A stretch of DNA of 54,188 nucleotides, from NCBI GenBank assembly GCA_021818685.1, contig JAKATP010000005.1:1-54188 (forward strand), written 5' to 3'. How positions within the stretch are numbered: the first letter of the stretch is position 1; every line of letters starts with the position of its first letter. The notes below the pieces were generated by a model that had not been told where the DNA came from, ran no database searches, and saw nothing but the letters and a program-made list of their open reading frames with translations. Shown piece by piece: positions 3,085-54,188 of this stretch. The DNA is from Bacillota bacterium. GTDB lineage: Bacteria; Bacillota; Sulfobacillia; Sulfobacillales; JAIMBI01. A program made the position numbers and the translations under genes.

Positions 3085-4084
3085 GGAGAATACCTCCTTG
3101 CACGGTGTGGCACTAAGTGGAAGTGCCTTCAAGCAGTGGCGTCAAGCAGTGCTGTCACTATGTTGTCATGCCTCCTGGCGAGGCCGTCGAGACAGCGAAC
3201 CAAAGACCCCGGGGACGTTTGTCGCGCCCACGATGAGCAGGGACGGGAGCTTGGCTCCAGATTACCATATATGGCCACTTTTGGAGTTTCCGGTCCACGG
3301 TTAACGCATCAATTTGCGCAGGGTGCCGTCTCGGAGATGAAGGCTGTAAAGGTTGGCCCTCACAACTTCGGCGTCGTCACCCAGCCGAGTCAAAACGACC
3401 GTCAGGATTGGCGGCCGACCATCTAGGCACTGCGGCAAGCCGACGAGGAGGATCCCGATAGAACTCGACTCGGGAGCTGACCGGCCTACGGCCCGATTCC
3501 GCGCGGCGATAACAAACGGTCACATCTTCGGGAGGTCGGAGTTATGTTCACCGGTTGGATCCGGCAAGCCATATCCATCGATGTAAGGCTCGCGCTACCC
3601 TTCCCTTCCCGCGGGGGGTGGCGGAGGCGGGGACGCCGAGGGGTCCGGTTCATGGCGGATCCGACCGAGAGGGGTCACGCCCAAGCCCGCACTCCTCTCC
3701 GTGCGACCCGTCTTTCCGTCAAACCCGTCGGACCGAGCCTCCTGGCCAGCTTTCCCGTGCTCGTCATCTATGGACGGTCTGACAATCGCGAGAGGACGGT
3801 GGTCGCCCCACTGCCTTCCAGAATGTTCTCCCCCATCGTTTACGCAGGACGGCGACATGGACTTCTTCTCGTCGGAGGACGAGGAGCGTCGTGTCGGATG
3901 CGTCGACCAAGGCGGTGCCGGCTTGGCCGGACCCGTCAGCAACCGGAGAGTATGCGAGCAACAATGTCAGCGCCCGCGAGGGCGAACACTTCGAGGGCAA
4001 GCCCGATTAGGAATAGACGCCTCCCAGTCTGGATACTGTTTCGGTGCACCCGAGAAAGACGAGACGGTGCCGGCCAGCCCGTGC

Positions 4085-7586: not shown

Positions 7587-8651
7587 CTAGGACGCGCGCT
7601 CGATAAGCGGAGTCAGCAGAGGCACACTCGGGCTCCCGGCATGGCCGAGATAAGGAAGATGCCAGGCGGCCTCGATGGTCTTCAGGATGCTGTAGTGATC
7701 CGCCCAGAGGGCGATACGTTTGTGCCGTGGGCCATCGCGGGCGATGACGATGAGGGGAACGTTGCCTCCTCCCAGTCGGCCAAGCACGGGCAGGCCCGCC
7801 AGGAGCAGCGGGGCTTCGGGACCCGGCGCCATGTACGCGCGCAGCGCCCCCGGCTGAAGCGTCGGCGCGCCGCCGCCTTCGTCCCAGACCACGAATACCA
7901 CCGCGTTGCCGTGCCAGGCGGGCGAATGGAGGATGCGGGGAATCCAGGCGGCCAAAAAGCTGTTGCCGTCGCGAATCAGGCGGCTCTTCTGGCTTTCGGG
8001 GCAGGCGGGATGGCGGCCGCCCGCCTGGCCATGCATGTCGTTACAGAGATTCGGCGTCAGAAACACGAAGCGGGGAACCGCGCCGGATGTGAGTTCGGCG
8101 GCCAAGACCGAGAGCGGCACCACATGCTGGCGGTCGTGCGCCCGCAGGTTTCGAAACAGCATGAACGGATCGTGCTTCTCCGCATAGAGCGTGGGGGCCG
8201 CCTCACTCGCTCCCGGCGACCAGGCGCCCGCGAAGCCGGTGTGCGGGAGACTTTCCATCACGGCTTGCCAGGAGATGCCTGCCTGATTGAGCTCGCTGGC
8301 CAGCGTCGGGCCTGAAAAACGCTGCGCGGGCGAGTCGCTGTGACTGCCGAATGTTCGCCCCGCGATGAGGGCTACGTAATTCGGGAGACTCGGGTGCGTG
8401 ACGCCGTAGTACGCGCTGTCATACGCGTACTGGCGGGCCAGGGAGCGGATGTAAGACGCACGCGGGTTTGCAAGGAGGGTGTCGGCACTTTGGTTCTCCA
8501 TCACGATAACGAATACGTGCGAAAAGGGCCTGGGGGCGCCGGCGGTCGGAGGCGCCGGATGGGTCTGCGGCCGCAGGACAATGGCCAAGTAGACCGCCAA
8601 CGCCAGTCCCAACACCGCGACGGCGATGAGAATCGTCCAGACCCGCCTCAC
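7587..8651 (-). CDS. Secreted/membrane-anchored phosphoesterase (acid phosphatase / phospholipase C family)
   Basis: N-terminal TM segment; HVFVIVMEN, THPSLPNY, KHDPF, TPNLCNDMH, DHYSILKTIE. Confidence 0.88.
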   Translation of the reverse strand: MRRVWTILIAVAVLGLALAVYLAIVLRPQTHPAPPTAGAPRPFSHVFVIVMENQSADTLLANPRASYIRSLARQYAYDSAYYGVTHPSLPNYVALIAGRTFGSHSDSPAQRFSGPTLASELNQAGISWQAVMESLPHTGFAGAWSPGASEAAPTLYAEKHDPFMLFRNLRAHDRQHVVPLSVLAAELTSGAVPRFVFLTPNLCNDMHGQAGGRHPACPESQKSRLIRDGNSFLAAWIPRILHSPAWHGNAVVFVVWDEGGGAPTLQPGALRAYMAPGPEAPLLLAGLPVLGRLGGGNVPLIVIARDGPRHKRIALWADHYSILKTIEAAWHLPYLGHAGSPSVPLLTPLIERAS

Positions 8652-8795
8652 CGCTCACCTCCCCCGACCGATTCCAAGATATCATTGACCGTCATGCACG
8701 CGCGTCCGCGCCCACGTCGGCCGCCTGGGATACCTGCCGCGGCGAACCTCGGGGCTGAAGCCGACGCGCCCGGCTTCACCCTGAAGCGGGGATTC

Positions 8796-10301
8796 TCAGG
8801 ATCCAATCCCCATGTGGCTCCAGATTATCTGACTGAGAGTGTCTAGAGTTTGGATGCCGTACGCTTGGGAGGGATTGCCCGACGACAGGATCGCCACCAC
8901 ATAGTTCCGGCCACTGCCTGCGACATGTCCGATGCTGTTGATTTCCCAGCCTCCGGGGACGGAAAGCCAGCCGTTTTTGAGCGCTACCGTGGCTCCACCC
9001 GTCGCTCCGGTCGACACTCCCCAGGCCTCCCATCCGACGACATGGGTCATCAGCTGGGCCTCGTACTGCTGGGACGCGGCCGTCAGTACGGGATTCGGAT
9101 AGCTCAATAGGCGGAGCAGTTCGACCTGGTCGACGGCTGACGTCTTGGTGAGGCCCCAGTAACCGCCTCGGGCGGGCGTGGTGTCAACCATGCCGGCCAC
9201 CTTGAGAAACTGAGCGATGCCGGCGCTGCTCCCGGCATCGAACCAGAGTGCGGTGGCTGCCGAGTTGCTGCTCGACTCAATCATGGGGACGGCCAGCTGC
9301 TGCTCCGCCGGGGTCAGCGGATGTCCAGACATCTGCGACTGCCAAAGGAGGGTCGCAAGGATCGTCGTTTTCACGATGCTGGCGGTGTCGAAGTCGTCGA
9401 GGGTGGGGTTAAACGTGTAGGTGACTCCGTCTTGAGCATCGTACACGGCGGCGGACACGGTTCCGGCACGACCGGCCAGGTAGTCCCGAAACGCCGTGCC
9501 GAAGGGGTTGGGTCCGGGCGCGGCCAGCGTTTGCCAGGCCGCAGTCAGCTCGGCCACCATTGCCTGGTGAGCGTGGAGCTGCTGGTCCGGGGTCCGGGTC
9601 AGATAACTCCCGGCCGATCGCACGGCCGCTTGGGCCTCGGTCCACCCGGTCCAGTTGGAGTTAGCTCCGGACAGTTTCTCGCGGAGCTTCTGCAGCAGGG
9701 CCAGCACATCTTGCGGTTCTCCACCGACGAGGCCTCCGCTGGCCCGCGACAGCTCGTTGGCGGCACGGGTCCAGGCGGCCGCCGCCTCGGTCCAGTCTGC
9801 GGCCAGGCGCAACAACGCGTCGGGTGTGTGGGCCGCGCCCAGATCCCGCTTCAGCTGGAGGGACGAGAGGGTGGAGCGGCTGCCCTCGAGGTGACGGAGC
9901 GCCGTGAAAGCATTAAGGGCTCGCTGGCGCGCCATCCGTGTGACGTGCGTCACCACTGCGGCTGTGTCCTGCCTGAGGTGAGTGAGCTCGGACGCCCCTC
10001 CCCCGAACCAAACACGGGGGAGGGGGTTAAAGGGGTTTTGGGCTTGCCATTGAGCGAGGGATGCGTGCAAAGGTGCCAGGGCCCGGGCCGGCACGCCTTC
10101 GCGGCGGTCGCTTTGCCATTCCACCGCGAGCCGCGCTGCGTTTTGATCGAAGGACCGGGCCCGGGCGGCCGCGAACAATGTGCCTCCGACGCCCAGCGCT
10201 GTCGCGGCGCTGACTGCCATGATGAGCGGCCACCGTATGCGGGATCGAGGATGGAGGTGCCGTCTGGCGGGATGGGTCTCGGGCCAGGACAGGGGTGGCA
10301 C
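8796..10301 (-). CDS. Secreted serine hydrolase, class A beta-lactamase-like C-terminal domain with helical N-terminal region
   Basis: TM segment; SxxK (ASIVK), SxN (SSN) and KNG motifs in the C-terminal half. Confidence 0.8.
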   Translation of the reverse strand: MPPLSWPETHPARRHLHPRSRIRWPLIMAVSAATALGVGGTLFAAARARSFDQNAARLAVEWQSDRREGVPARALAPLHASLAQWQAQNPFNPLPRVWFGGGASELTHLRQDTAAVVTHVTRMARQRALNAFTALRHLEGSRSTLSSLQLKRDLGAAHTPDALLRLAADWTEAAAAWTRAANELSRASGGLVGGEPQDVLALLQKLREKLSGANSNWTGWTEAQAAVRSAGSYLTRTPDQQLHAHQAMVAELTAAWQTLAAPGPNPFGTAFRDYLAGRAGTVSAAVYDAQDGVTYTFNPTLDDFDTASIVKTTILATLLWQSQMSGHPLTPAEQQLAVPMIESSSNSAATALWFDAGSSAGIAQFLKVAGMVDTTPARGGYWGLTKTSAVDQVELLRLLSYPNPVLTAASQQYEAQLMTHVVGWEAWGVSTGATGGATVALKNGWLSVPGGWEINSIGHVAGSGRNYVVAILSSGNPSQAYGIQTLDTLSQIIWSHMGIGS

Positions 10302-10471
10302 GAGGGTGGGGGCTCCCTTCAGGTATTGGTAATCACAACGCTATAGACGCCTTCTAAGTCACAGACGGCGCATTAGACGGACAAGTCCGGGAGGCCCGCA
10401 ATCGGGTATGGGCCGGAGAAAGAACTCCGGATCCGGGCGACCGGTATGACCGCGCCTCGCCGCTTTGCTAA

Positions 10472-10503
10472 TTGCCCACCCCCCGGGGGGAGGGGAGTAT
10501 ACT
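10472..10503 (+). promoter_or_regulatory. Putative CsoR operator overlapping csoR-copA promoter
   Basis: C-tract/G-tract pseudo-palindrome CCCACCCCCCGGGGGGAGGG followed by a TATACT -10, typical of CsoR-family operators. Confidence 0.6.
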
Positions 10504-10551
10504 GTTGAGAACAGAGTCGAACGAGGGCGGGGGATGAAGGGAGGAGCGGAT

Positions 10552-10854
10552 ATGCTGCCCGAGTATAAGGCCGATGCCAGCCACCGTCTGAAGGGTGCAG
10601 TCGGACATTTGAGGGCGGTCGAGCGCATGGTCGCGGAAGAACGCTACTGTGTGGACATCATGAAGCAGCTGGCCGCCGTGCAGGCGAGCCTCGAAGGTGT
10701 GCAGCAGGTGCTCTTGAAGAATCATCTGTCGACCTGCGTGACCGACGCGATCCTGGCAGGCTCAGGAGATTCGCTCATTCACGAATTGGTGCAGGCGCTG
10801 CGCTACAGCAAAGGGATTCCGCCGGCCGAAGCGCTGACGGTGACATCGGGCTGA
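10552..10854 (+). CDS. csoR: Copper-sensing transcriptional repressor CsoR family
   Basis: RL....GH....RM.....YC.DI..QL.AV......H...CV; GGAGG RBS; directly upstream of copA. Confidence 0.9.
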   Translation: MLPEYKADASHRLKGAVGHLRAVERMVAEERYCVDIMKQLAAVQASLEGVQQVLLKNHLSTCVTDAILAGSGDSLIHELVQALRYSKGIPPAEALTVTSG

Positions 10855-10882: not shown

Positions 10883-13800
10883 TTGGCACTCGGAAAGACG
10901 GCACCACCGGACACAGCCGCGGAAACGTCCGTGCAGATCGGCATCGTGGGCATGACGTGTGCGAGCTGTGCTCTGCGCATCGAGAAGGGACTGTCCCGTC
11001 TGGAAGGCGTGGATGGCGTCCGGGTGAATTTCGGCACGGAGAAAGCTACGGTGCGTTTTGATGCGAAGGCCGTGGATCCGTCGCGGATTGTGGCCAAGAT
11101 CCAGGATGTGGGCTACAAGGCCATCACCAGCACCATGCGGCTCCGAGCGGTGGAACCATGGTCGGAAGCTAAGGCGGCCGAGGCACAGTCGATCATAGCG
11201 GCGATGCCCGGCATCGTGACGGTCCGGTTTGAAGCAACATCGGACCTTTTGGTGGCCCAGTACCTGCCCGACACGGTGGGTTCGGCAGACGTGCGGCGGG
11301 CGCTGAAGGACCACGGCCTGACGACCGAGGACGTGGGTCAGGAGAAAGATGCACTGCACGAAGCACGCGCGCACGAAATTCGGGGCTGGCTCCGGCGCTT
11401 TATGGTGGGCGCGGTGGTCTCGCTGCCACTGGCCATTGGGCTTGTAAGCCGGATAGCTGGCCATCCCATCCTGATGAACCCATGGCTGCAATGGGGGTTG
11501 GCCACCATCGTGCAGGCTTACGTCGGCGGGTTCTACTACGTGGATTCCTTCCACAACCTGAAGAACCGGAACGCCAATATGTCCGTGCTGGTGGCTCTCG
11601 GGACTTCGGCCGCGTACGTGCTGAGCGCGGGTCTCACGCTGGCCGGGTCCCGCCATGTGCTGTACTTCGATGACGCGGCCTTGGTGCTGACGCTCGTGAG
11701 CCTCGGAAAATACATCGAGGCGCGGGCCAAGGGTGCATCCTCAAGCGCCATGAAAGAACTCATGGGCCTATCTCCCAAAGAGGCCCATGTGGTGGTGGAT
11801 GGGGTGGAGACGTCCATGGCCGTCGACGACATCGAGCCGGGTATGGAATTGGTGGTGAGGCCGGGCGAGAAGATTCCGATCGACGCCGTCGTTACGGGGG
11901 GGCGAAGCCGGGTCGACGAGTCGATGCTGACCGGTGAGCCGGTACCGGTCTCGAAGGCGGTCGGGGATGAGGTCGTGGGTGCGACCTTGAACCAGACCGG
12001 GATGCTGCGGATCAAAGCGCTCAAAGTCGGCCGGGACACCGCCCTTGCGCAGATCGTGGCGTCGGTGGAGAGCGCGCAGGCCCAAAAAGCCCCCGTGGAG
12101 GGCCTGGCCGACCGCATCGCGGGCATCTTCGTCCCCGTGGTGCTGGTCATTGCCGTCGTGACGTTTGCGGTGTGGGCACTCGTGACGGGCAACGTCATCC
12201 ACGCCATCCTGCCGGCCGTGACCGTCCTCGTGGTGGCGTGTCCGTGCGCCCTCGGGCTGGCGACCCCGACGGCCGTGACAGCCGGGGTCGGCGTGGGGGC
12301 ACGGCGCGGCATCCTGATTCGGGGGGGCGAGTATCTCGAAGCCGCGGCCGGGATTAATGCCGTCGTCTTTGACAAGACCGGGACCATCACGCGCGGAAGG
12401 CCGAGTGTATCCGAAGTGCGGGCGGTCGGCGGCGGCGAGGGGGACGGGTCCCGCGTGCTGCAATGGGCAGCGGCGGTGGAGCGGTTCTCCGAGCACCCGT
12501 TCGGGCAGGCACTGGTGGAAGCGGCCCGGGACCGCGGACTCCCGGTGCCGGAGGCGTCAGACTTCGATGCGACCGTCGGCCGCGGGGTGTCAGGACTGGT
12601 GGACGGTCATCGGATTCAGGTCGGGAATGTCCGCGCCTTGGCCGATGACGGCGTCGTTAGCGAGGCGCTGGAAGAGACCGCGCGGGCATGGGAAGCCGAC
12701 GGGCAATCCGTCGTGTACGTAGCGGTGGATGGCCAAGTTGTGGGTGCGGCGGCCATTTCCGACGCGATCAAGGACACGGCCGCAGAAGCCGTACGGGCGC
12801 TCCAGCACGACGGCCTCGCTGTATATCTCCTGACGGGTGACAATCGGCGGGTGGCGGAAGCCGTCGCCCGCCGGGTCGGCATTCCGGACGGGCATGTGCG
12901 CGCGGAGGTGTTGCCGGAGGCCAAGGGCGCGGCCGTCGCCGCGCTCCGGGCCGGGGGGCTTCGGGTGGCTATGGTCGGGGACGGGATCAACGACGCCCCC
13001 GCCCTGGCCACGGCCGACCTCGGGATCGCCATCGGCACCGGTACTGACGTCGCCATTGCCGCCGCCGGCATTACGCTTATGAGCGGTGATGTCCGCGGCG
13101 TGGCGGGCGGGCTGCGGCTGGCGCGCAAGACGCTTGGAAAGATTCGGCAGAACCTCTTCTGGGCGTTTATCTACAACGTCATCCTGATCCCGGTGGCCGC
13201 TGTCGGCTGGCTGGCACCCGTGTTCTCGGGCGCCGCCATGGCGATGTCGTCTATCCTGGTGACCAGCAATTCGGCCCTGTTGAACCGGGTCAATCCGTAC
13301 GCGGGCTTGACGGAGACGGAGGCCCGGTGGGCCGCCACCGACGGAGCGGACGCCGACGGAGCGGACGCCGACGCGTCGGCGACCGCGAGCGATCCGGTCT
13401 GCGGGATGACGGTGCGCGTGGGAGACGCCGCGGGCCGATTCACCTATCAGGGGGAGACGTACTACTTCTGTGCGAAGTCGTGTCTGGAGGAGTTTCGTGA
13501 AGACCCGGAACGATTCTTGAAAGGGGAGCGGATAGAGATGGCAGAGGCTGAAGCGGGAACGGCCGTCGATCCCGTGTGTGGGATGACCGTGAAGATTGGA
13601 CAGGAGGCCGCGCGCCATACCCACGAGGGCATCACCTATTACTTCTGCGCGCGGTCCTGCCACGAAGAGTTCCAAGCCGACCCCGAGCGATTCTTGAAGC
13701 GATCCGGGGGCGATACCGAAGCGATTCGGACAGCCGTGGACCCGGTTTGCGGGATGACCGTCATGCGGGAGTCGGCGGCGGCGCGCCTCGACTGGGAGGG

Positions 13801-48983: not shown

Positions 48984-49763
48984 CTACTTCTCCGGGGGTT
49001 CAGGAGCTGGGCGCCGGCTCCGGCCGCGCCAGAAATCGCGGATCGGATCGAAATAGCGGTCCGCCACACGCTCTTTTAACGGAATGATGGCGTTTTCGGT
49101 GATGGCGATCGCTTCCGGACATACGTCTGAACAGCATCGGGTCACGTTGCACCAGTCGACGCCGCCCTCGCGGCGCACGTACGGTGTGCGGTCCCGCGTG
49201 TCGAGAGGGTGCATGTCGAGTTCCGCCAGTTTCAGCATAAAACGCGGCCCCATGTAGTGGTCTAGGCGATGATGATCGCGAAGCACGTGGCACACATCCT
49301 GACACAAGAAACACTCAATGCAGCGGCGAAACTCTTTGAGCCGTTCCACGTCCTCCGGCCACAGCTGAAACGGCGCTGGGTGCGCGGGGGTGAAGGGCGG
49401 AATACGGCGCGCGATTTCGTAGTTCTTTCGGATATCCGGCACCAGGTCACGGATGACGGGAAACGTTTTCATCGGTCCCACATGAACGGCCTCGTTCCGC
49501 CGCATATAATCATCCATCCGCGTCTTGCACAAGAGGCGCGGCCGTCCGTTCACCTCGGCCCCACACGATCCGCAGTGGGCGGCCTTGCAGTTCCAGCGCA
49601 CAGCCAGATCGGGCGCCTCATGCTGCTGGACGTACAAGACGGCGTCCAGCACCACCATCCCGGGGGATAGTTCTACCATGTACTGCCGTTCCTCGCCGCT
49701 CAGGCCGTCCCCGCGAAAGATCCAGATCGGCACCTCGCGGCCCCGGAACCCGTCCTCCGTCAT
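48984..49763 (-). CDS. sdhB: Succinate dehydrogenase/fumarate reductase Fe-S subunit (Sdh1-type)
   Basis: RWNCKAAHCGSC..C, CIECFLCQDVC, CNVTRCCSDVCP. Confidence 0.9.
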   Translation of the reverse strand: MTEDGFRGREVPIWIFRGDGLSGEERQYMVELSPGMVVLDAVLYVQQHEAPDLAVRWNCKAAHCGSCGAEVNGRPRLLCKTRMDDYMRRNEAVHVGPMKTFPVIRDLVPDIRKNYEIARRIPPFTPAHPAPFQLWPEDVERLKEFRRCIECFLCQDVCHVLRDHHRLDHYMGPRFMLKLAELDMHPLDTRDRTPYVRREGGVDWCNVTRCCSDVCPEAIAITENAIIPLKERVADRYFDPIRDFWRGRSRRPAPEPPEK

Positions 49764-51544
49764 GCCCCTTCCGACCCCCTCGCGCGGGAGGCCTCCTCCC
49801 GCTGCCGCTTGACGCCGGGCGACACCGGATCATCAAAGAGTCGGCGGAGATCCGGGGGCATTTCCGGCACCGGCTCGTCCCGGACCTTTATCCGGCCGTC
49901 TGGACCGAGTGTCTGGACAATGTTGCGACGACCCTCTTCGGGGTCCTCGTCCGGGTAGTCGGTGCGCCAGTGGGCACCACGGCTCTCCCGCCGTTCCCGC
50001 GCACCCGTCAGGATGGCGCGGGCCAGGGTGAGCATGTTCTGCACGTCAAACACGAGCCCCCAGCCGGGATTGAAATGCAGGCCCCCGTCGGCCGACATCC
50101 GGTTCGCCCGCTCCGAGAGCCGTTCGAGGTGGCCGAGTCCGTCAGTGAGGCTCGTGCCGGAGCGCATGATGCCGGCATAGGTGGACATGAGCTGCTGAAG
50201 CTGGGCGTGGATCAGGTAGGGGTTTTCGCCGCTCTCGATGGCAAAAGGGGCGAGGACGCGCCGGCGCTCCTCCTCTATGGACGAGTACGACAAGGAAGAC
50301 GTCCCGGGGCGCCTCGCGGCGTAGGCCGCCGCCGCGAGGCCGGCGCGGCGGCCGAACACCAAAAGGTCGCCCAGGCTATTGCCACCGAGACGATTGCCGC
50401 CGTGCAGGCCGGCCGCCGTCTCCCCGCATGCATAGAGACCTTCAATATTGGTGGCGCCGGTCTCCGCTTCCACCCGGAGCCCGCCCATGGTGTAGTGGGT
50501 CGTCGGCGCCACCTCGAATCGCTCCCGGGTGATGTCTAGATCGGCGAGCTTTAAGAACTGCTCATACATGGTTGGAAGCTTCCGCTTGATATAAGCCGGG
50601 CCCTTGTGACTGATGTCGAGCCATGCCCCCCCGTGGGGTGTCCCCCGGCCCGCCTGCACCTCCCGAAAGATGGAGCGCGAGACCACATCGCGCGCGGAGA
50701 GCTCCTTCCGCTCGGGGTCGTAGCGCAACATGAAGCGCTCGTTCTGGCTGTTGAACAGGAGCCCGCCTTCACCGCGGACCCCTTCGGTTACCAGAATGCC
50801 ACGCACGCCCGGCGGCCACACCATACCTGTCGGATGGAACTGGACCATCTCCATGTCCATGAGCTCGGCTCCTGCCCGAAAGGAGATGGCGGCTCCGTCG
50901 CCGGTGGACTCCCACGAGTTCGAGCTCACCTTATAGACTCGGCCCCAACCGCCGCTGGCCATGATGACGGCATGCGCTGAAAAGATGAGAAAGCGGCCAT
51001 CGTCGCGCTGGTAGCAGAATGCACCAGCCGCCCGACCATTGTCGTCGAGGAAGAGGCGGGTCGTGATGACCTCCGGGTACACGTCCACCCGTTTGGTGGC
51101 CAGGATCTTGTACTCCAGCGTGCGGATCAGTTCCTTGCCGGTGCTGTCGCCCACGTGTGCGAGTCGGCGGAACGAGTGGGCGCCGAAGGGACGCTGCATG
51201 ATCCGGCCGTCCTCGGTGCGGTCAAAGACGGCCCCCCAGGTTTCAAGCTCGAGCACCCGGTCCGGCGCCTCCTGGGTATACAGCGAAACCATCCGGTAGT
51301 TGTTCAGGAAGTGGCCGGCCTTCATGGTGTCGTAGAAGTGCGTGTCAAAGCTGTCGTACGGGTCGAGATTCCCGAGCGCGGCCGCGATGCCGCCTTCGGC
51401 CATGACCGTGTGCGCCTTGCCGAGGAGCGACTTGGACAGGACCGCCACTCGGGCGCCCTCCTCAGCCGCGGCTAGCGCCGCACGCAGCCCGGCTCCTCCC
51501 GCTCCCACGATGAGGACGTCATAGTGCAGGGGGTCGATGTTCAT
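49760..51544 (-). CDS. sdhA: Succinate dehydrogenase/fumarate reductase flavoprotein subunit
   Basis: GAGGAG, AHTVMAEGG, QFHPT, TEGVRGEGG, HYTMGG, HGGNRLGGNSL, ESRGAH. Confidence 0.93.
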   Translation of the reverse strand: MNIDPLHYDVLIVGAGGAGLRAALAAAEEGARVAVLSKSLLGKAHTVMAEGGIAAALGNLDPYDSFDTHFYDTMKAGHFLNNYRMVSLYTQEAPDRVLELETWGAVFDRTEDGRIMQRPFGAHSFRRLAHVGDSTGKELIRTLEYKILATKRVDVYPEVITTRLFLDDNGRAAGAFCYQRDDGRFLIFSAHAVIMASGGWGRVYKVSSNSWESTGDGAAISFRAGAELMDMEMVQFHPTGMVWPPGVRGILVTEGVRGEGGLLFNSQNERFMLRYDPERKELSARDVVSRSIFREVQAGRGTPHGGAWLDISHKGPAYIKRKLPTMYEQFLKLADLDITRERFEVAPTTHYTMGGLRVEAETGATNIEGLYACGETAAGLHGGNRLGGNSLGDLLVFGRRAGLAAAAYAARRPGTSSLSYSSIEEERRRVLAPFAIESGENPYLIHAQLQQLMSTYAGIMRSGTSLTDGLGHLERLSERANRMSADGGLHFNPGWGLVFDVQNMLTLARAILTGARERRESRGAHWRTDYPDEDPEEGRRNIVQTLGPDGRIKVRDEPVPEMPPDLRRLFDDPVSPGVKRQREEASRARGSEGA

Positions 51545-52314
51545 CGGAGGAGCCTCGGATCCCGAATCAGTCCGAGAATCAGGAGCCGGACGTACACGGC
51601 CGTACCCCACACCCAGAACATGGAAATCCAGGCGTAAAGACCGTGATGCTGGTTGAGTCGGCTGATGACCCGCCAGAGGTGGTAGCGGGCGCGGGGACGG
51701 CGCGGCTTACAGCGGTAACAGTTCAGGTTTCCACCTGCCAGGTGTCGGAATGCGTGGCAGGAAAACGTATAGAGGCTTAGGAGCGCGGCGTCGACCAGAA
51801 GCAGGAGGGACCCGAGGCCTATCCCGAACCGACCTCCGAAGTCAAATCCGTGGAGGGCATCGACCCACAGGAAAACGACGACGACCGTACTCAGATAGAA
51901 GAAGAACCGATGAAAATAGGTCCACACCATCGGGGGACGTGTTTCTCCGGTATAGCGGGTGCGACGGTCCGGAACGGCGCAGGCCGGCGGGCTCCCAAAC
52001 CAGGCACGGTAGTACTCCCGCCGATAGTAGTAGCAAGAGGCACGGAACAAGAGCGGCACCCACGCCACCCACAGGGCCGGAAAGACCGGAATCTTAAGCC
52101 AGCGTCCAAGATCAGGCGAAAAGTACGGCGACAGGTAGTTGTGATAGCGGCCATGCACCTGAAAAAAGACTTCCCACAGCGAGTAGAGGACAAACAGGGC
52201 GAGGGCCGCGCCTACCAGGACGGGTTCGATCCAAAAGTACCGTTCCGTCGCCGCCTTCGTCTGGTGGGGCGGTTCCTGATGCGATAGGGACGGGTGGGAA
52301 AGGGAGTCGTGCAC
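51541..52314 (-). CDS. Cys/His-rich membrane anchor, mycobacterial Rv0249c-like (Sdh1 type)
   Basis: YLSP.FSP, FR..CYYYR..YYR....PPACAV, HR.F.Y, YT.SCH.FRH..GG; first gene of the sdh operon. Confidence 0.8.
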   Translation of the reverse strand: MHDSLSHPSLSHQEPPHQTKAATERYFWIEPVLVGAALALFVLYSLWEVFFQVHGRYHNYLSPYFSPDLGRWLKIPVFPALWVAWVPLLFRASCYYYRREYYRAWFGSPPACAVPDRRTRYTGETRPPMVWTYFHRFFFYLSTVVVVFLWVDALHGFDFGGRFGIGLGSLLLLVDAALLSLYTFSCHAFRHLAGGNLNCYRCKPRRPRARYHLWRVISRLNQHHGLYAWISMFWVWGTAVYVRLLILGLIRDPRLLR

Positions 52315-52452
52315 GCTCTCGTCTCCTTGTAGCGCTCAAGGTACCCCTAGCCTTCCCGTTTTCGCGACGGTGAAGACGGCTAGGTCCTGGCCGCGTCCGT
52401 TGACCTTGGCTGGGACCGATGCTATAGTGGCCGCAACTTCATAGCGCTTCCA

Positions 52453-52557
52453 CCTTTATCAAGACAGGCAGAGGGATCGGCCCGATGATGCCTGGGCAAC
52501 CGGCGCACGATGCGTGCGGTGCCAACTCCGACGGCGCCAGACGCCGACAGATGAGGG
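52453..52557 (+). ncRNA. SAM-I riboswitch (S-box)
   Basis: CCTTTATCAAGACAGGCAGAGGGATCGGCCCGATGATGCCTGGGCAACC...GGTGCCAACTCC...AGATGAGG matches the SAM-I consensus. Confidence 0.93.
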
Positions 52558-52579
52558 AGGAACCGGAGCCCTGCACGCT

Positions 52580-52604
52580 GCGGCCCTCCTCGGGCCGTTT
52601 TTTT
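52580..52604 (+). terminator. Riboswitch expression-platform terminator
   Basis: GCGGCCC-TCCTC-GGGCCGT followed by a T tract. Confidence 0.85.
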
Positions 52605-52628
52605 GATGGACGGAAGGACGTGGGGATC

Positions 52629-53810
52629 ATGGAGGACGGATCGGCAGGACGGCCGGGCGAGTTTCAGGTCGTCTACCAGGTGCAGACGGATCCGGTCATC
52701 GGAAGGGCGACTACCGGCGGTACGGAGGCGTGGCGGGCGCGTGGACGCTTTCTTGGAGAGGTTCCGGCCCCGCGCGGCGGACGCGCGTTGGAGGCCACAG
52801 AGAGCGCCGGAGGGCTAGAGGTGCGGGCGGCCCTGTCCTTGCCGGTTCAGGCGTCCCTCGCGGCCATCGTCGACGCCCTCGAGAGTGGGTGGCCGACGGA
52901 TGTTGCCGTTCGCATCGTGCATGTCGAGTTGCCCTCCAGGCTCGAAGAACACCTGCCGGGCCCGCGGTACGGGGTGCCCGAGCTCCGGCGGCGATTCGCA
53001 ACACGGTTCCGTCCCCTCCTTCTGGCGGCGGTAGACGGAGTCTCCGACGATCTCGACGATTGGGGCGCTGCTCTCCGTGTCCAATGGCTGGCCGGCGTCG
53101 ACATCCTCGTCGAGGGGCGGGGTGAAGACACGGCCGATGGGTCGGAGACGATGCGCCGGCTCGAGAGGGCAGGCTTGGAGGCTTCCCGCATCGCGTTGGA
53201 CACTCCCCGGCGGCCGCTCTACGCCGCCCGTCTGTTCCCGTCCGGACGTGATCTCGTGGCGCAGGCCGAGCGTCTTCGGGATGCGGGGGCCGAAGCCCTG
53301 GTTGTGGAATGGACGGTGTCGGACCTCGACGCGCTGGCGGCCGTAGCTCGGCTGCCTGACAGCCCGGTGATCGTAGCGATGGCGAAGCCCCGCGAGGCGC
53401 CAGCGGCGACTCCGGCGGTTCTCGCACCGGCGGTACTGTTCGGTGAGCTGGTGCGGGCGGCGGGAGCGGATGTGTCGGGGTATGATATCGCAGCTCCCGA
53501 GGGGCGTGCGGCACCCCTCGCGGCCACGGATCAGGCGTCGGTGGGCGAAGCCCTCGCCGCGTCGGGATTCCGGCGCGCGGCGTGGCCGGCGCCGTCTTTC
53601 GGCATTCATCCCGGGATCCTGCCGAGTCTGGTCCGGGAGCTCGGTCCGGACATCGTTATCGACGCCTCGGTCGCTATCCATGGCCATCCCGGAGGTCCGC
53701 GGGCGGGGGCAGCCGCCTTCACACAGGCACTGGACCGCCTGTCGGGGTACGCCGGACCCCTACCAGACGAGCTCGCGCAGGCGCTCGCCCGCTGGGGCGG
53801 TGCCGCGTGA
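52629..53810 (+). CDS. RuBisCO-like (form IV, MtnW-like) protein with degenerate active site
   Basis: PGP.YG...RPLL, GVD, LYA, GAD, PS.GIHPG, HGHP.G..AGA.AF and ALA.WG are retained; the KDDE motif reads VEGR. Confidence 0.8.
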   Translation: MEDGSAGRPGEFQVVYQVQTDPVIGRATTGGTEAWRARGRFLGEVPAPRGGRALEATESAGGLEVRAALSLPVQASLAAIVDALESGWPTDVAVRIVHVELPSRLEEHLPGPRYGVPELRRRFATRFRPLLLAAVDGVSDDLDDWGAALRVQWLAGVDILVEGRGEDTADGSETMRRLERAGLEASRIALDTPRRPLYAARLFPSGRDLVAQAERLRDAGAEALVVEWTVSDLDALAAVARLPDSPVIVAMAKPREAPAATPAVLAPAVLFGELVRAAGADVSGYDIAAPEGRAAPLAATDQASVGEALAASGFRRAAWPAPSFGIHPGILPSLVRELGPDIVIDASVAIHGHPGGPRAGAAAFTQALDRLSGYAGPLPDELAQALARWGGAA

Positions 53811-54188
53811 GGCGCGCGACGAGACACGGGCAGGGCGCCTCCGCCATCCCCGGGGGACGTCCTCTGGCCGATCGGATGCAGGCCCTGCCGGAACAGTTCT
53901 TTTCGAACCTGGTGGCGAAGACCACGGCACGCATAAAGGCTGGACACGATGTCATCAATCTGGGGCAGGGCAATCCCATCGACGAGACCCCGCCGCATGT
54001 CGTCGACCGCCTCCGGTCCACCGCGGGCGAGCTTCGTTACCAGCGTTACGGGCCGTTCTCCGGGCTTTCTGATTTGAAGGCGGCGGCGGCACGCTGGTAT
54101 GCCGCGCGCTACGGCGTTCATCTCGACCCAGCGCGCGAGATCGCCATCACCATGGGCATGAAGGCAGGGCCACGTCATAGTCGACGAT
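53807..54188 (+). CDS. mtnE: PLP-dependent aminotransferase class I/II, MtnE-like (runs off window end)
   Basis: Manual translation LPEQFFSNLVAK...GHDVINLGQGNP...YGPFSG..LK.A...WY..RYGV.LDP.REI; GTGA overlap with the RLP stop; downstream of the S-box. Confidence 0.8.
   Translation, partial: MRRATRHGQGASAIPGGRPLADRMQALPEQFFSNLVAKTTARIKAGHDVINLGQGNPIDETPPHVVDRLRSTAGELRYQRYGPFSGLSDLKAAAARWYAARYGVHLDPAREIAITMGMKAGPRHSRR

Follow-up and report, generated by a model that had tools for sequence, protein, structure and literature searches.

The stretch analysed here, which we call the window, is 54,188 nucleotides long and constitutes one entire contig (JAKATP010000005.1; C189 in our numbering) of the Bacillota assembly GCA_021818685.1 (G000; 3.09 Mb, 246 contigs, 95.8% complete). 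Its right end carries an S-adenosylmethionine (SAM)-I riboswitch, a gene for a RuBisCO-like protein (RLP; RuBisCO, the carboxylase/oxygenase of ribulose-1,5-bisphosphate) that resembles the methionine-salvage enolase MtnW and has lost its catalytic residues, and the beginning of an MtnE-like aminotransferase gene. This locus was compared with those of two congeners (G001 and G002, 97% and 84% complete), three genomes of a sister genus (G005, G006 and G007) and two further genomes of the same family (G003 and G004). The features of the locus are the following.

52400-52428, plus strand: promoter-like site, TTGACC-17-TATAGT with TG ahead of the -10 hexamer (10 of 12 consensus matches; assigned by consensus only)
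52453-52557, plus strand: aptamer of a SAM-I riboswitch (S box), matched over the full RF00162 model (1-108) with E 1.6e-18 and 84.2 bits, the gathering score being 44.4
52580-52605, plus strand: intrinsic terminator of the expression platform, a 7-pair hairpin (stem 52580-52598, 6 G-C pairs) followed by TTTTTTT
52629-53810, plus strand: catalytically dead MtnW-type RLP, 393 codons and TGA; best structural match 2oek, E 1e-32
53807-54162, plus strand: codons 1-119 of a gene for an MtnE-like class I/II aminotransferase; PF00155, NF005977/PRK08068

The riboswitch is the sole Rfam match within the window. With an aptamer above the gathering score and a terminator ahead of the start codon, the leader has the composition of a SAM-I attenuator, and one promoter-like site was found where shuffled sequence yielded a mean of 0.1. 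The longest open frame spans 52485-53810, but its start falls within the aptamer, so the longer frame is not credible; the ATG at 52629, a start codon also kept in G001, is the likely start, and the frame ends with the TGA at 53808-53810. The gene has 390 codons in G001 and at least 399 in G002, where it ends at the contig edge, against 394 in the functional pair G005/G007. A SAM-I riboswitch also precedes the RLP gene in G001, G005, G006 and G007; in G002 the corresponding region would lie outside the contig. The GTG start of the aminotransferase gene overlaps the RLP stop (GTGA), and the GCGTGA junction is identical in G000, G001 and G002. An earlier, sequence-only reading of this DNA had described a SAM-I riboswitch directly ahead of an intact open reading frame (ORF) of about 390 amino acids colinear with MtnW, and this description was borne out.

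Loss of the catalytic and metal-binding residues

When the RLP was searched with phmmer against all chains of the Protein Data Bank (PDB), MtnW enolases were the best matches (2oek, then 4nas at 3.5e-32, 2zvi at 2.3e-31 and 3fk4 at 6.7e-31), and true RuBisCOs matched weakly. The alignment places RLP residues 76-390 on residues 87-407 of the 2oek chain, the enolase of G. kaustophilus. The top NCBIfam models were likewise two MtnW equivalogs, both of which scored below cut-off (NF007095, 144.1 bits against 409; TIGR03332, 124.6 against 513.6). The Pfam model PF00016 reached 23.2 bits against a cut-off of 30.1 and matched residues 318-371 alone, and no N-terminal domain family was reported by Pfam. 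With residues counted along the printed 2oek alignment, the catalytic positions of the enolase correspond to those of the G000 protein as follows.

2oek Lys98 (FGKLS): Gly87
2oek Lys147 (SIFK; AAVD here): Asp136
2oek Lys173-Asp174-Asp175-Glu176 (KDDE): Val161-Glu162-Gly163-Arg164
2oek His264 (AHPA; AKP here): Lys253 in phmmer or a gap in MAFFT, depending on the aligner
2oek Gly-Gly-Gly (NAGGG; DASVA here): Ser-Val-Ala

We take Lys98 of MtnW to be the general base, Lys173 the carbamylated lysine, Asp175 and Glu176 the metal ligands, and the Gly-Gly-Gly segment the phosphate loop, roles that were reportedly assigned by Imker et al. in 2007. The sequence-only reading had listed the changes of SIFK to AAVD, KDDE to VEGR, AHP to AKP and NAGGG to DASVA; all of them reappeared in the phmmer alignment to 2oek, which adds the loss of Lys98, and the change of AHP to AKP is the one that MAFFT does not reproduce. 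In 45 canonical sequences, invariance of at least 90% holds for each of the columns of Lys98, Lys147 and His264. An unaltered KDDE occurs in 15 of the 18 genome-derived relatives, the exceptions being G001, G002 and G039 (KDAE), and in 30 of the 31 metagenome loci, L070 being unaligned. With the catalytic and metal-binding positions and the Gly-Gly-Gly loop replaced, the earlier assignment of a catalytically dead MtnW-type RLP is upheld, and the view that the protein cannot act as the known 2,3-diketo-5-methylthiopentyl-1-phosphate (DK-MTP-1-P) enolase is supported at the level of sequence.

The structural motifs PGP, RPLL, GIHPG, HGHP and ALxxWG survive in the alignment to 2oek, as had been described before, with GIHPG and HGHP lying in the C-terminal half. 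The G000 protein retains 46 of the 96 columns with at least 90% invariance among the 45 canonical sequences: 3 of 10 in residues 1-75, 17 of 44 in residues 76-225 and 26 of 42 in residues 226-393. Before this count, P0008 was dropped as a fragment, and L040, L062, L063, L064, L066, L067, L068 and L070 were dropped as partial, divergent or unaligned.

A full two-domain fold was predicted for the RLP by AlphaFold2 from a 40-row alignment (mean predicted local distance difference test (pLDDT) score 87.4, predicted template modelling (pTM) score 0.88). The model contains the N-terminal alpha/beta domain and the eight-stranded barrel of the RuBisCO superfamily, and Foldseek placed MtnW structures first (2zvi, 2oem and 4nas; probability 1.00, TM scores 0.72-0.79). 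Residues 23-39, where canonical proteins carry a conserved G-x-W-T segment, have pLDDT below 50 and are predicted to be disordered. Alignment and structure prediction, which the sequence-only reading had named among its checks, left the KDDE-equivalent residues missing and yielded a predicted MtnW-like fold. A predicted complex of the RLP and the aminotransferase of G001 scored 0.00 and 0.00 against a mark of 0.32; run without controls, this prediction speaks neither for nor against binding.

Relatives and graded loss of the active site

No second RuBisCO-family gene was found in G000 by a protein search or by a PF00016 search of the genome. Since both searches return the RLP locus alone, a second paralogue doing the enolase job was rejected, and the search for a second intact mtnW or an mtnC, also proposed in the sequence-only reading, recovered neither gene.

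Among 1.84 billion representative proteins there were three matches at E 1e-30 or better, and six relatives were found in 5.8 billion clustered proteins. A scan of one genome per GTDB species gave two close relatives, both from metagenome-assembled genomes of uncultured Bacillota or Clostridia, namely G001 and G002, whose RLPs are 61.7% and 47% identical to that of G000. A metagenome scan with the canonical protein P0006 as query gave 31 relatives, nearly all of them canonical, with a best match of 61% identity; the contig that encodes P0006 itself was not among them. In a maximum-likelihood tree, four degenerate proteins form one clade, (P0005,(G002,(G000,G001))), with support 96/96. This clade nests inside the MtnW family, beside P0006, and no inner branch of the tree is longer than the stem leading to G000 and G001 (1.18 changes per column). 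The degenerate-RLP clade belongs to uncultured Bacillota of mine drainage and tailings.

The loss of catalytic residues within the clade is graded. G002 is intermediate: Lys98 is replaced by Asn and Lys173 by Thr, and Lys147, both Asp residues and His264 are kept. P0005 has Asp, Ala, Q-D-R-E and Gln at the catalytic positions. The loss is complete in G000 and G001, and the residues that now occupy the former active site largely differ between these two proteins (G000/G001: D/A, V/V, G/A, R/G, K/gap, SV/TA, IHGH/IQDH). Residues that are common to the three congeners and rare in canonical sequences are scattered and form no cluster at the former catalytic positions.

Three observations on other loci are added here. 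In the metagenome contig L063 (513-1619), Gln occupies the Lys147 position and Tyr the His264 position, with KDDE intact; the KDAE sequence of G039 comes from locus L013. In G006, a riboswitch-controlled RLP gene (L021; G006:C70, 387-1608) is split over three frames and KDDE reads NDDE, and the mtnX gene downstream looks intact; the broken gene would represent either an independent pseudogenisation or an assembly error. Finally, Logan contigs from four runs of four studies (X1, X7, X9 and X10) were compared with the window, and contigs of a second related organism in X7 and X9 match window positions 52456-52534 and 53938-53988, with 1441 unlike letters in between against 1403 here. By sequence, this organism is one with the same riboswitch-RLP-aminotransferase layout and a diverged RLP.

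Methionine-salvage genes and the history of the operon

Family models for salvage genes were searched in G000, G001, G002, G005 and G007, and "not found" is relative to the models used.

mtnA: over cut-off in 5 of 5 genomes
5'-methylthioadenosine (MTA) phosphorylase (MtnP): found in 5 of 5, over cut-off in 2; G000 269 against 274.85 bits
mtnK: over cut-off in 0 of 5 genomes
mtnB: over cut-off in G005 and G007 alone
mtnX-like: G005 and G007 alone
mtnD (acireductone dioxygenase): G005 and G007 alone
mtnC: 0 of 5 genomes

In G005 and G007, mtnX, mtnB and mtnD sit directly after the RLP gene. The G007 operon comprises the riboswitch, the RLP gene (8557-9522), mtnX (9549-10172), mtnB (10253-10786), mtnD (11073-11399) and the aminotransferase gene (11447-12610), and G005 has the same gene order. 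In G000, G001 and G002, mtnX, canonical mtnB and mtnD were not found with the family models. In G001 the riboswitch and the dead RLP gene are directly followed by the aminotransferase gene and then by fabZ and genes for a MarR regulator and a major facilitator superfamily pump; the transcription unit consists of the dead RLP and the aminotransferase only. The earlier description of a gene heading a methionine-salvage operon was therefore abandoned: mtnX, canonical mtnB, mtnD and mtnK were not found in G000-G002, the unit in G001 has two genes, and in the G000 assembly the second of these is interrupted. Removal of mtnX, mtnB and mtnD by one deletion in the ancestor of the genus is what we infer from these gene orders.

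A class II aldolase gene (PF00596, 175 bits) comes after mtnA in each of the three congeners. Among NCBIfam models, this aldolase matches ribulose-1-phosphate aldolase best (174 bits, cut-off 300), and its likeness to MtnB is confined to the N-terminal half. The parts available of three reports describe a dihydroxyacetone phosphate (DHAP) shunt for MTA and 5'-deoxyadenosine that consists of MtnP, MtnA and a class II-type aldolase (PMC10986504, PMC12632272, PMC6079011). From their gene content, these organisms probably handle MTA via MtnP, MtnA and the class II aldolase, in a DHAP-shunt-like route. At G000:C16:2963-5786 (L036), mtnA and the aldolase gene are accompanied by a family-2 glycosyltransferase gene, with a cytochrome P450 gene upstream.

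Selection on the degenerate gene

The ratio of nonsynonymous to synonymous substitution rates (omega, dN/dS) was estimated pairwise by the method of Nei and Gojobori (NG86) with bootstrap 95% ranges, and the main figures come from one species pair, G000/G001. Across this pair, 119 best-hit ORF pairs have a median identity of 86.7%, and the median omega is 0.11 (118 pairs; some top-ranked values are probably wrong-frame shadows). The aminotransferase, with an omega of 0.14, is ordinary. For the RLP (trimmed genes), dN is 0.30, dS 0.92 and omega 0.33 (0.26-0.41), and the regions of the protein differ.

Residues 1-75: omega 0.77 (0.41-1.27); differences at codon positions 1/2/3, 25/29/34
Residues 76-225: omega 0.38 (0.24-0.57)
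Residues 226-393: omega 0.17 (0.10-0.26); differences at codon positions 1/2/3, 12/10/40 (residues 301-393 only)

In the functional pair G005/G007, omega is 0.10-0.23 in every region, and the value for RLP residues 226-393 is as low. Comparisons with G002 show the same pattern, with omega values of 0.16 and 0.26 for residues 301-393. Because the active site is already absent from both the G000 and the G001 protein, this constraint post-dates the catalytic loss. The near-neutral N-terminal domain has the same base composition and controls internally for a G+C artefact. Synonymous divergence is high throughout the gene (dS 0.68-1.86) and similar or higher in the C-terminal part (0.77-1.86); recent recombination as a source of the C-terminal similarity was rejected, since dS there is as high as elsewhere. 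All three indel events between the G000 and G001 genes are in frame. Taken together, the constraint on the C-terminal half, the indels that stay in frame and the kept length, start codon and riboswitch rule out a plain pseudogene. Among the four runs, six single-nucleotide polymorphisms were seen in the RLP gene, 4 synonymous and 2 non-synonymous, too few to weigh.

The coupled aminotransferase and its interruption

The best NCBIfam match of the aminotransferase is NF005977/PRK08068, presumably the subfamily that holds B. subtilis MtnE. Against NF005977 (cut-off 494), the full-length protein of G001 scores 439.8 bits and the fragment in the window 112.6 bits. Its orthologue follows mtnD in G005 and G007, where it ends the mtnWXBD operon. 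Residues 2-120 of the G001 protein match window positions 53807-54163 (77% identical) and residues 101-402 match G000:C173:6011-6916 (82% identical). The window tracks the orthologue up to ...ITMGMK and then diverges. Two features lie at this place.

54155-54162, plus strand: left copy of an 8-bp target-site duplication, GCATGAAG; the same 8 bases precede the remainder of the aminotransferase gene at G000:C173:6048
54163-54188, plus strand: leftmost 26 nt of an insertion sequence (IS) of the ISAs1 family, 26/26 identical to G000:C173:4022-4047; the contig ends inside the element

On C173, the 26-nt end leads into an element of about 2.0 kb (G000:C173:4022-6047, L037) that encodes an ISAs1 transposase. 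The transposase is divided between frames of 480 and 154 aa, which score 143.6 and 91.3 bits against NF033564 (cut-off 70), and has an N-terminal DruA-like domain (PF14236, 88.6 bits). The family assignment rests on the transposase, similar imperfect ends and 8-bp duplications at two insertion sites. A second copy has its own 8-bp duplication, GAGACGGG, which is shared by C173 and C160 (G000:C160:1-98), so that G000 holds at least two copies. The existence of this second copy implies that the assembler joined the wrong left flank: C173 is chimeric across the repeat, with the left flank of one copy and the right flank of the other, and contains a 100-N scaffold gap at 3490-3589.

In X1, X9 and X10, contigs with 2-5 differences over window positions 52300-54164 continue past 54164 with TGGCACTGCAGGAAATTTCC..., the uninterrupted aminotransferase gene, and an X7 contig likewise reaches 54164. 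Intact genes in contigs of three other studies indicate that the insertion is recent and strain-level; for the same reason it was rejected as a sign of long-term decay. The coupling to an mtnE-like gene claimed by the sequence-only reading holds as regards the GTGA overlap, but the aminotransferase gene is intact only to codon 119, where the ISAs1 element cuts it.

Flanking genes and a second riboswitch

Upstream of the locus in G000, between a hydrolase gene and the riboswitch, lie two minus-strand frames of 616 and 257 aa (window 49760-52314). By eye, the 616-aa frame looks like a flavoprotein with flavin adenine dinucleotide (succinate dehydrogenase or aspartate oxidase type) and the 257-aa frame like a membrane protein. 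In G001 the riboswitch has the hydrolase gene directly upstream of it, which makes the two genes an insertion or deletion between the congeners. Downstream, the aminotransferase gene is followed in G000 and G002 by a gene with a DUF1779 domain (PF08680; G000:C173:6366-7685, L037, and L023:871-1606), for which no counterpart was seen at the corresponding place in G001. In G002 a gene for an M23 peptidase comes next, and its G000 counterpart opens contig C128. A second SAM-I riboswitch stands directly before metK (74.8 and 75.6 bits; G000:C128:5103-5205, L038, and L022:11831-11933). It lies on contig C128 in G000 and a few kilobases downstream of the RLP locus in G001.

Interpretation

We favour the reading, at a confidence that stops just short of even, that the RLP is a dead MtnW remnant whose C-terminal half keeps a non-catalytic role. 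The ancestral state would have been that of the sister genus, with the riboswitch followed by mtnW, mtnX, mtnB, mtnD and the aminotransferase gene. In the ancestor of the present genus, mtnX, mtnB and mtnD would have been deleted, the mtnW stop would have come to overlap the aminotransferase start, and MTA would have been rerouted via MtnP, MtnA and the class II aldolase encoded next to mtnA. Freed from its reaction, the mtnW product lost the general-base lysine, the carbamylated lysine, both metal ligands, the second lysine, the histidine and the Gly-Gly-Gly loop. The N-terminal domain, which in the RuBisCO-like family contributes to the active site of the partner subunit, now drifts almost neutrally. 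The gene has stayed behind its complete SAM-I attenuator with start codon, length and predicted fold kept, and the C-terminal half, made up of barrel strands 5-8 and the C-terminal helices, appears to be under purifying selection as strong as in a working enzyme.

The pseudoenzyme would be made at low SAM together with the MtnE-like aminotransferase, and its residual role may be to assist the coupled aminotransferase, as a partner or in assembly, or to bind a ligand. We are doubtful of the fuller proposal of a RuBisCO-superfamily pseudoenzyme whose C-terminal half-barrel, after the loss of the metal site, of both catalytic lysines and of what the N-terminal domain contributed, is kept at enzyme-level selection and which is made only at low SAM and acts with the coupled aminotransferase, for example as an assembly partner or a sensor of a methionine-cycle metabolite. 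The suggestion in the sequence-only reading that the protein is kept for another role is supported in part: the omega of the whole gene and, above all, that of residues 226-393 is low and all indels are in frame, but the N-terminal domain is compatible with neutral drift and the gene ranks 114th of 118 in dN.

Several observations weigh against a retained function. The RLP is far less conserved between G000 and G001 than the typical gene, with an omega rank of 108/118, and it evolves faster than about 95% of the compared genes. About half of the family-invariant residues are gone from the G000 protein. The omega values are pairwise NG86 estimates only, at a dS of about 0.9-1.5. At 71% G+C, and with few stops in the other frames (2-6 in each of the other five in G000, and one frame stop-free in G001), an open frame counts for little by itself; that the frame is truly coding follows from its homology to 2oek and from the codon-position pattern of substitutions. 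The structural model was built from an alignment composed mostly of canonical enzymes and therefore indicates fold compatibility only, with no independent evidence of folding. The insertion in one strain shows that loss of the coupled aminotransferase is tolerated at least briefly.

Further points of this kind are also those expected of a functionless relic that serves as a leader cistron, an explanation that we regard as serious though unlikely. According to it, the protein itself does nothing, the frame is kept for riboswitch control, as the location of the sole ribosome entry site under the riboswitch, and for ribosome delivery to the aminotransferase GTG, the gene is heading to loss, and the remaining constraint reflects avoidance of stops, of polarity and of a toxic misfolded product. 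The GTGA overlap, together with a G-rich stretch just upstream of it, is kept in G000, G001 and G002, the pathway partners mtnX, mtnB and mtnD are gone, and the former active-site positions vary freely. Evolution is accelerated throughout the gene, and the N-terminal domain (residues 1-75) is compatible with neutral drift. Moreover, the family sheds the RLP gene repeatedly: G003 and G004 gave no RLP match, and in G006 the RLP frame is broken. G003 keeps the aminotransferase orthologue (62% identical) without an RLP and with no riboswitch within 10 kb.

A leader cistron, however, requires no particular amino acids, and the constraint on residues 226-393 extends beyond the last few codons that coupling could affect. 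Across a dS of about 1.5 the ORF has lost no large in-frame segment, and the frame is unchanged in the strain with the IS-broken aminotransferase gene, although that insertion is recent. We prefer the non-catalytic role of the C-terminal half to the leader cistron since conservation of the amino acids across 168 codons is beyond what coupling can explain.

Another explanation, which the sequence-only reading had put forward and which we now judge improbable, is that the barrel was re-tooled with new catalytic residues, as has happened repeatedly in form IV RLPs. The superfamily is known for functional shifts such as that to the isomerase of R. rubrum, according to the part available of one report (PMC6302742). 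An apiose-pathway decarboxylase appears among the weak NCBIfam matches of the RLP, the stem before G000 and G001 is long, and the C-terminal half is conserved in G000 with GIHPG and HGHP. Against it, the old site holds no new shared constellation: the former catalytic positions differ between G000 and G001, and the unusual residues shared by the congeners are scattered, without clustering there. The metal site is gone from both proteins, the N-terminal domain, by which the active site is closed, evolves as neutral drift would allow, and the operon has gained no new enzyme genes.

That the RLP is still a DK-MTP-1-P enolase and the substitutions are alignment errors is highly improbable: the protein is colinear with MtnW over its full length and its best family matches are MtnW models, but its scores fall far below both equivalog cut-offs, three independent alignments (phmmer to PDB chains, MAFFT, and MAFFT on 49 sequences) place the same non-catalytic residues between conserved flanks (RPLL, GVD and HGHPGG), and neither mtnB, which makes the substrate, nor mtnX and mtnD, which use the product, were found.

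Relation to known systems and implications

The RLP is closest, in sequence and in predicted fold, to MtnW/YkrW of B. subtilis, G. kaustophilus and A. acidocaldarius (2zvi, 2oek and 4nas), with which it is colinear and equal in length. By descent it goes back to a SAM-riboswitch-controlled mtnW that heads an mtnWXBD-aminotransferase operon, as in the sister genus. Unlike MtnW, it is without the residues of the Lys98, Lys147, Lys173, Asp175, Glu176 and His264 positions and without the Gly-Gly-Gly loop, it scores below the family cut-offs, it stands in genomes where mtnX, mtnB and mtnD were not found, and its N-terminal domain evolves at a rate compatible with neutrality.

With other form IV RLPs (the 5-methylthioribulose-1-phosphate (MTRu-1-P) isomerase of R. 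rubrum, the C. tepidum protein 1ykw/1tel and the R. palustris proteins 2qyg/3qfw), the RLP shares the RuBisCO fold and an altered active site; they are weaker matches than MtnW in both sequence and fold. To our knowledge, the carbamylated lysine and the metal ligands are still present in these other proteins, each of which is an enzyme or presumed to be one. In contrast to them, the G000 RLP has lost the metal site altogether, and it nests inside the MtnW clade. Form IV RLPs are described, in the parts available of two reports, as proteins without carboxylase activity, with altered active-site residues and with ties to sulfur metabolism or to the metabolism of SAM by-products (PMC6302742, PMC1821046).

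As in pseudoenzymes generally, catalytic residues are lost, the predicted fold is kept and purifying selection is measurable on part of the protein; unlike in pseudoenzymes generally, the constraint is partial (omega 0.17 in residues 226-393 but 0.77 in residues 1-75, by pairwise NG86 in one species pair) and the clade is tiny and young. No precedent for a described RuBisCO-superfamily pseudoenzyme or dead RLP was found in the searchable literature. The rbcL gene of Euglena longa, as far as the available part of its report describes it, is a similar case of a RuBisCO-family gene retained and extremely divergent after the loss of its classical pathway context, but it encodes a eukaryotic plastid form I large subunit and not an RLP (PMC4938576).

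For the annotation of such genomes, the case calls for caution. Labelled RuBisCO-like protein or enolase by similarity, the RLP would lead metabolic reconstructions to credit these organisms wrongly with the classical methionine salvage pathway, whereas the route that they apparently encode instead is DHAP-shunt-like.

RuBisCO-like proteins are a textbook case of one fold acquiring new chemistry, and we know of no characterised member that lacks the carbamylated-lysine metal site. The clade described here shows the fate of a RuBisCO-like protein once its reaction has lost its use. Living relatives reveal the order of events: an intact operon, deletion of mtnX, mtnB and mtnD, stepwise catalytic loss, drift of the N-terminal domain, and a constraint on the half-barrel that persists. 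If this constraint has no function behind it, the locus would show, with good dating, how a gene dies slowly under translational coupling. If the pseudoenzyme reading is true, the RLP would be, as far as the literature searched reaches, the first RuBisCO-family protein that selection has kept in a non-catalytic state. And if the constraint reflects a real function, it would amount to a new non-catalytic use of the RuBisCO fold, in a tractable two-gene unit under riboswitch control.

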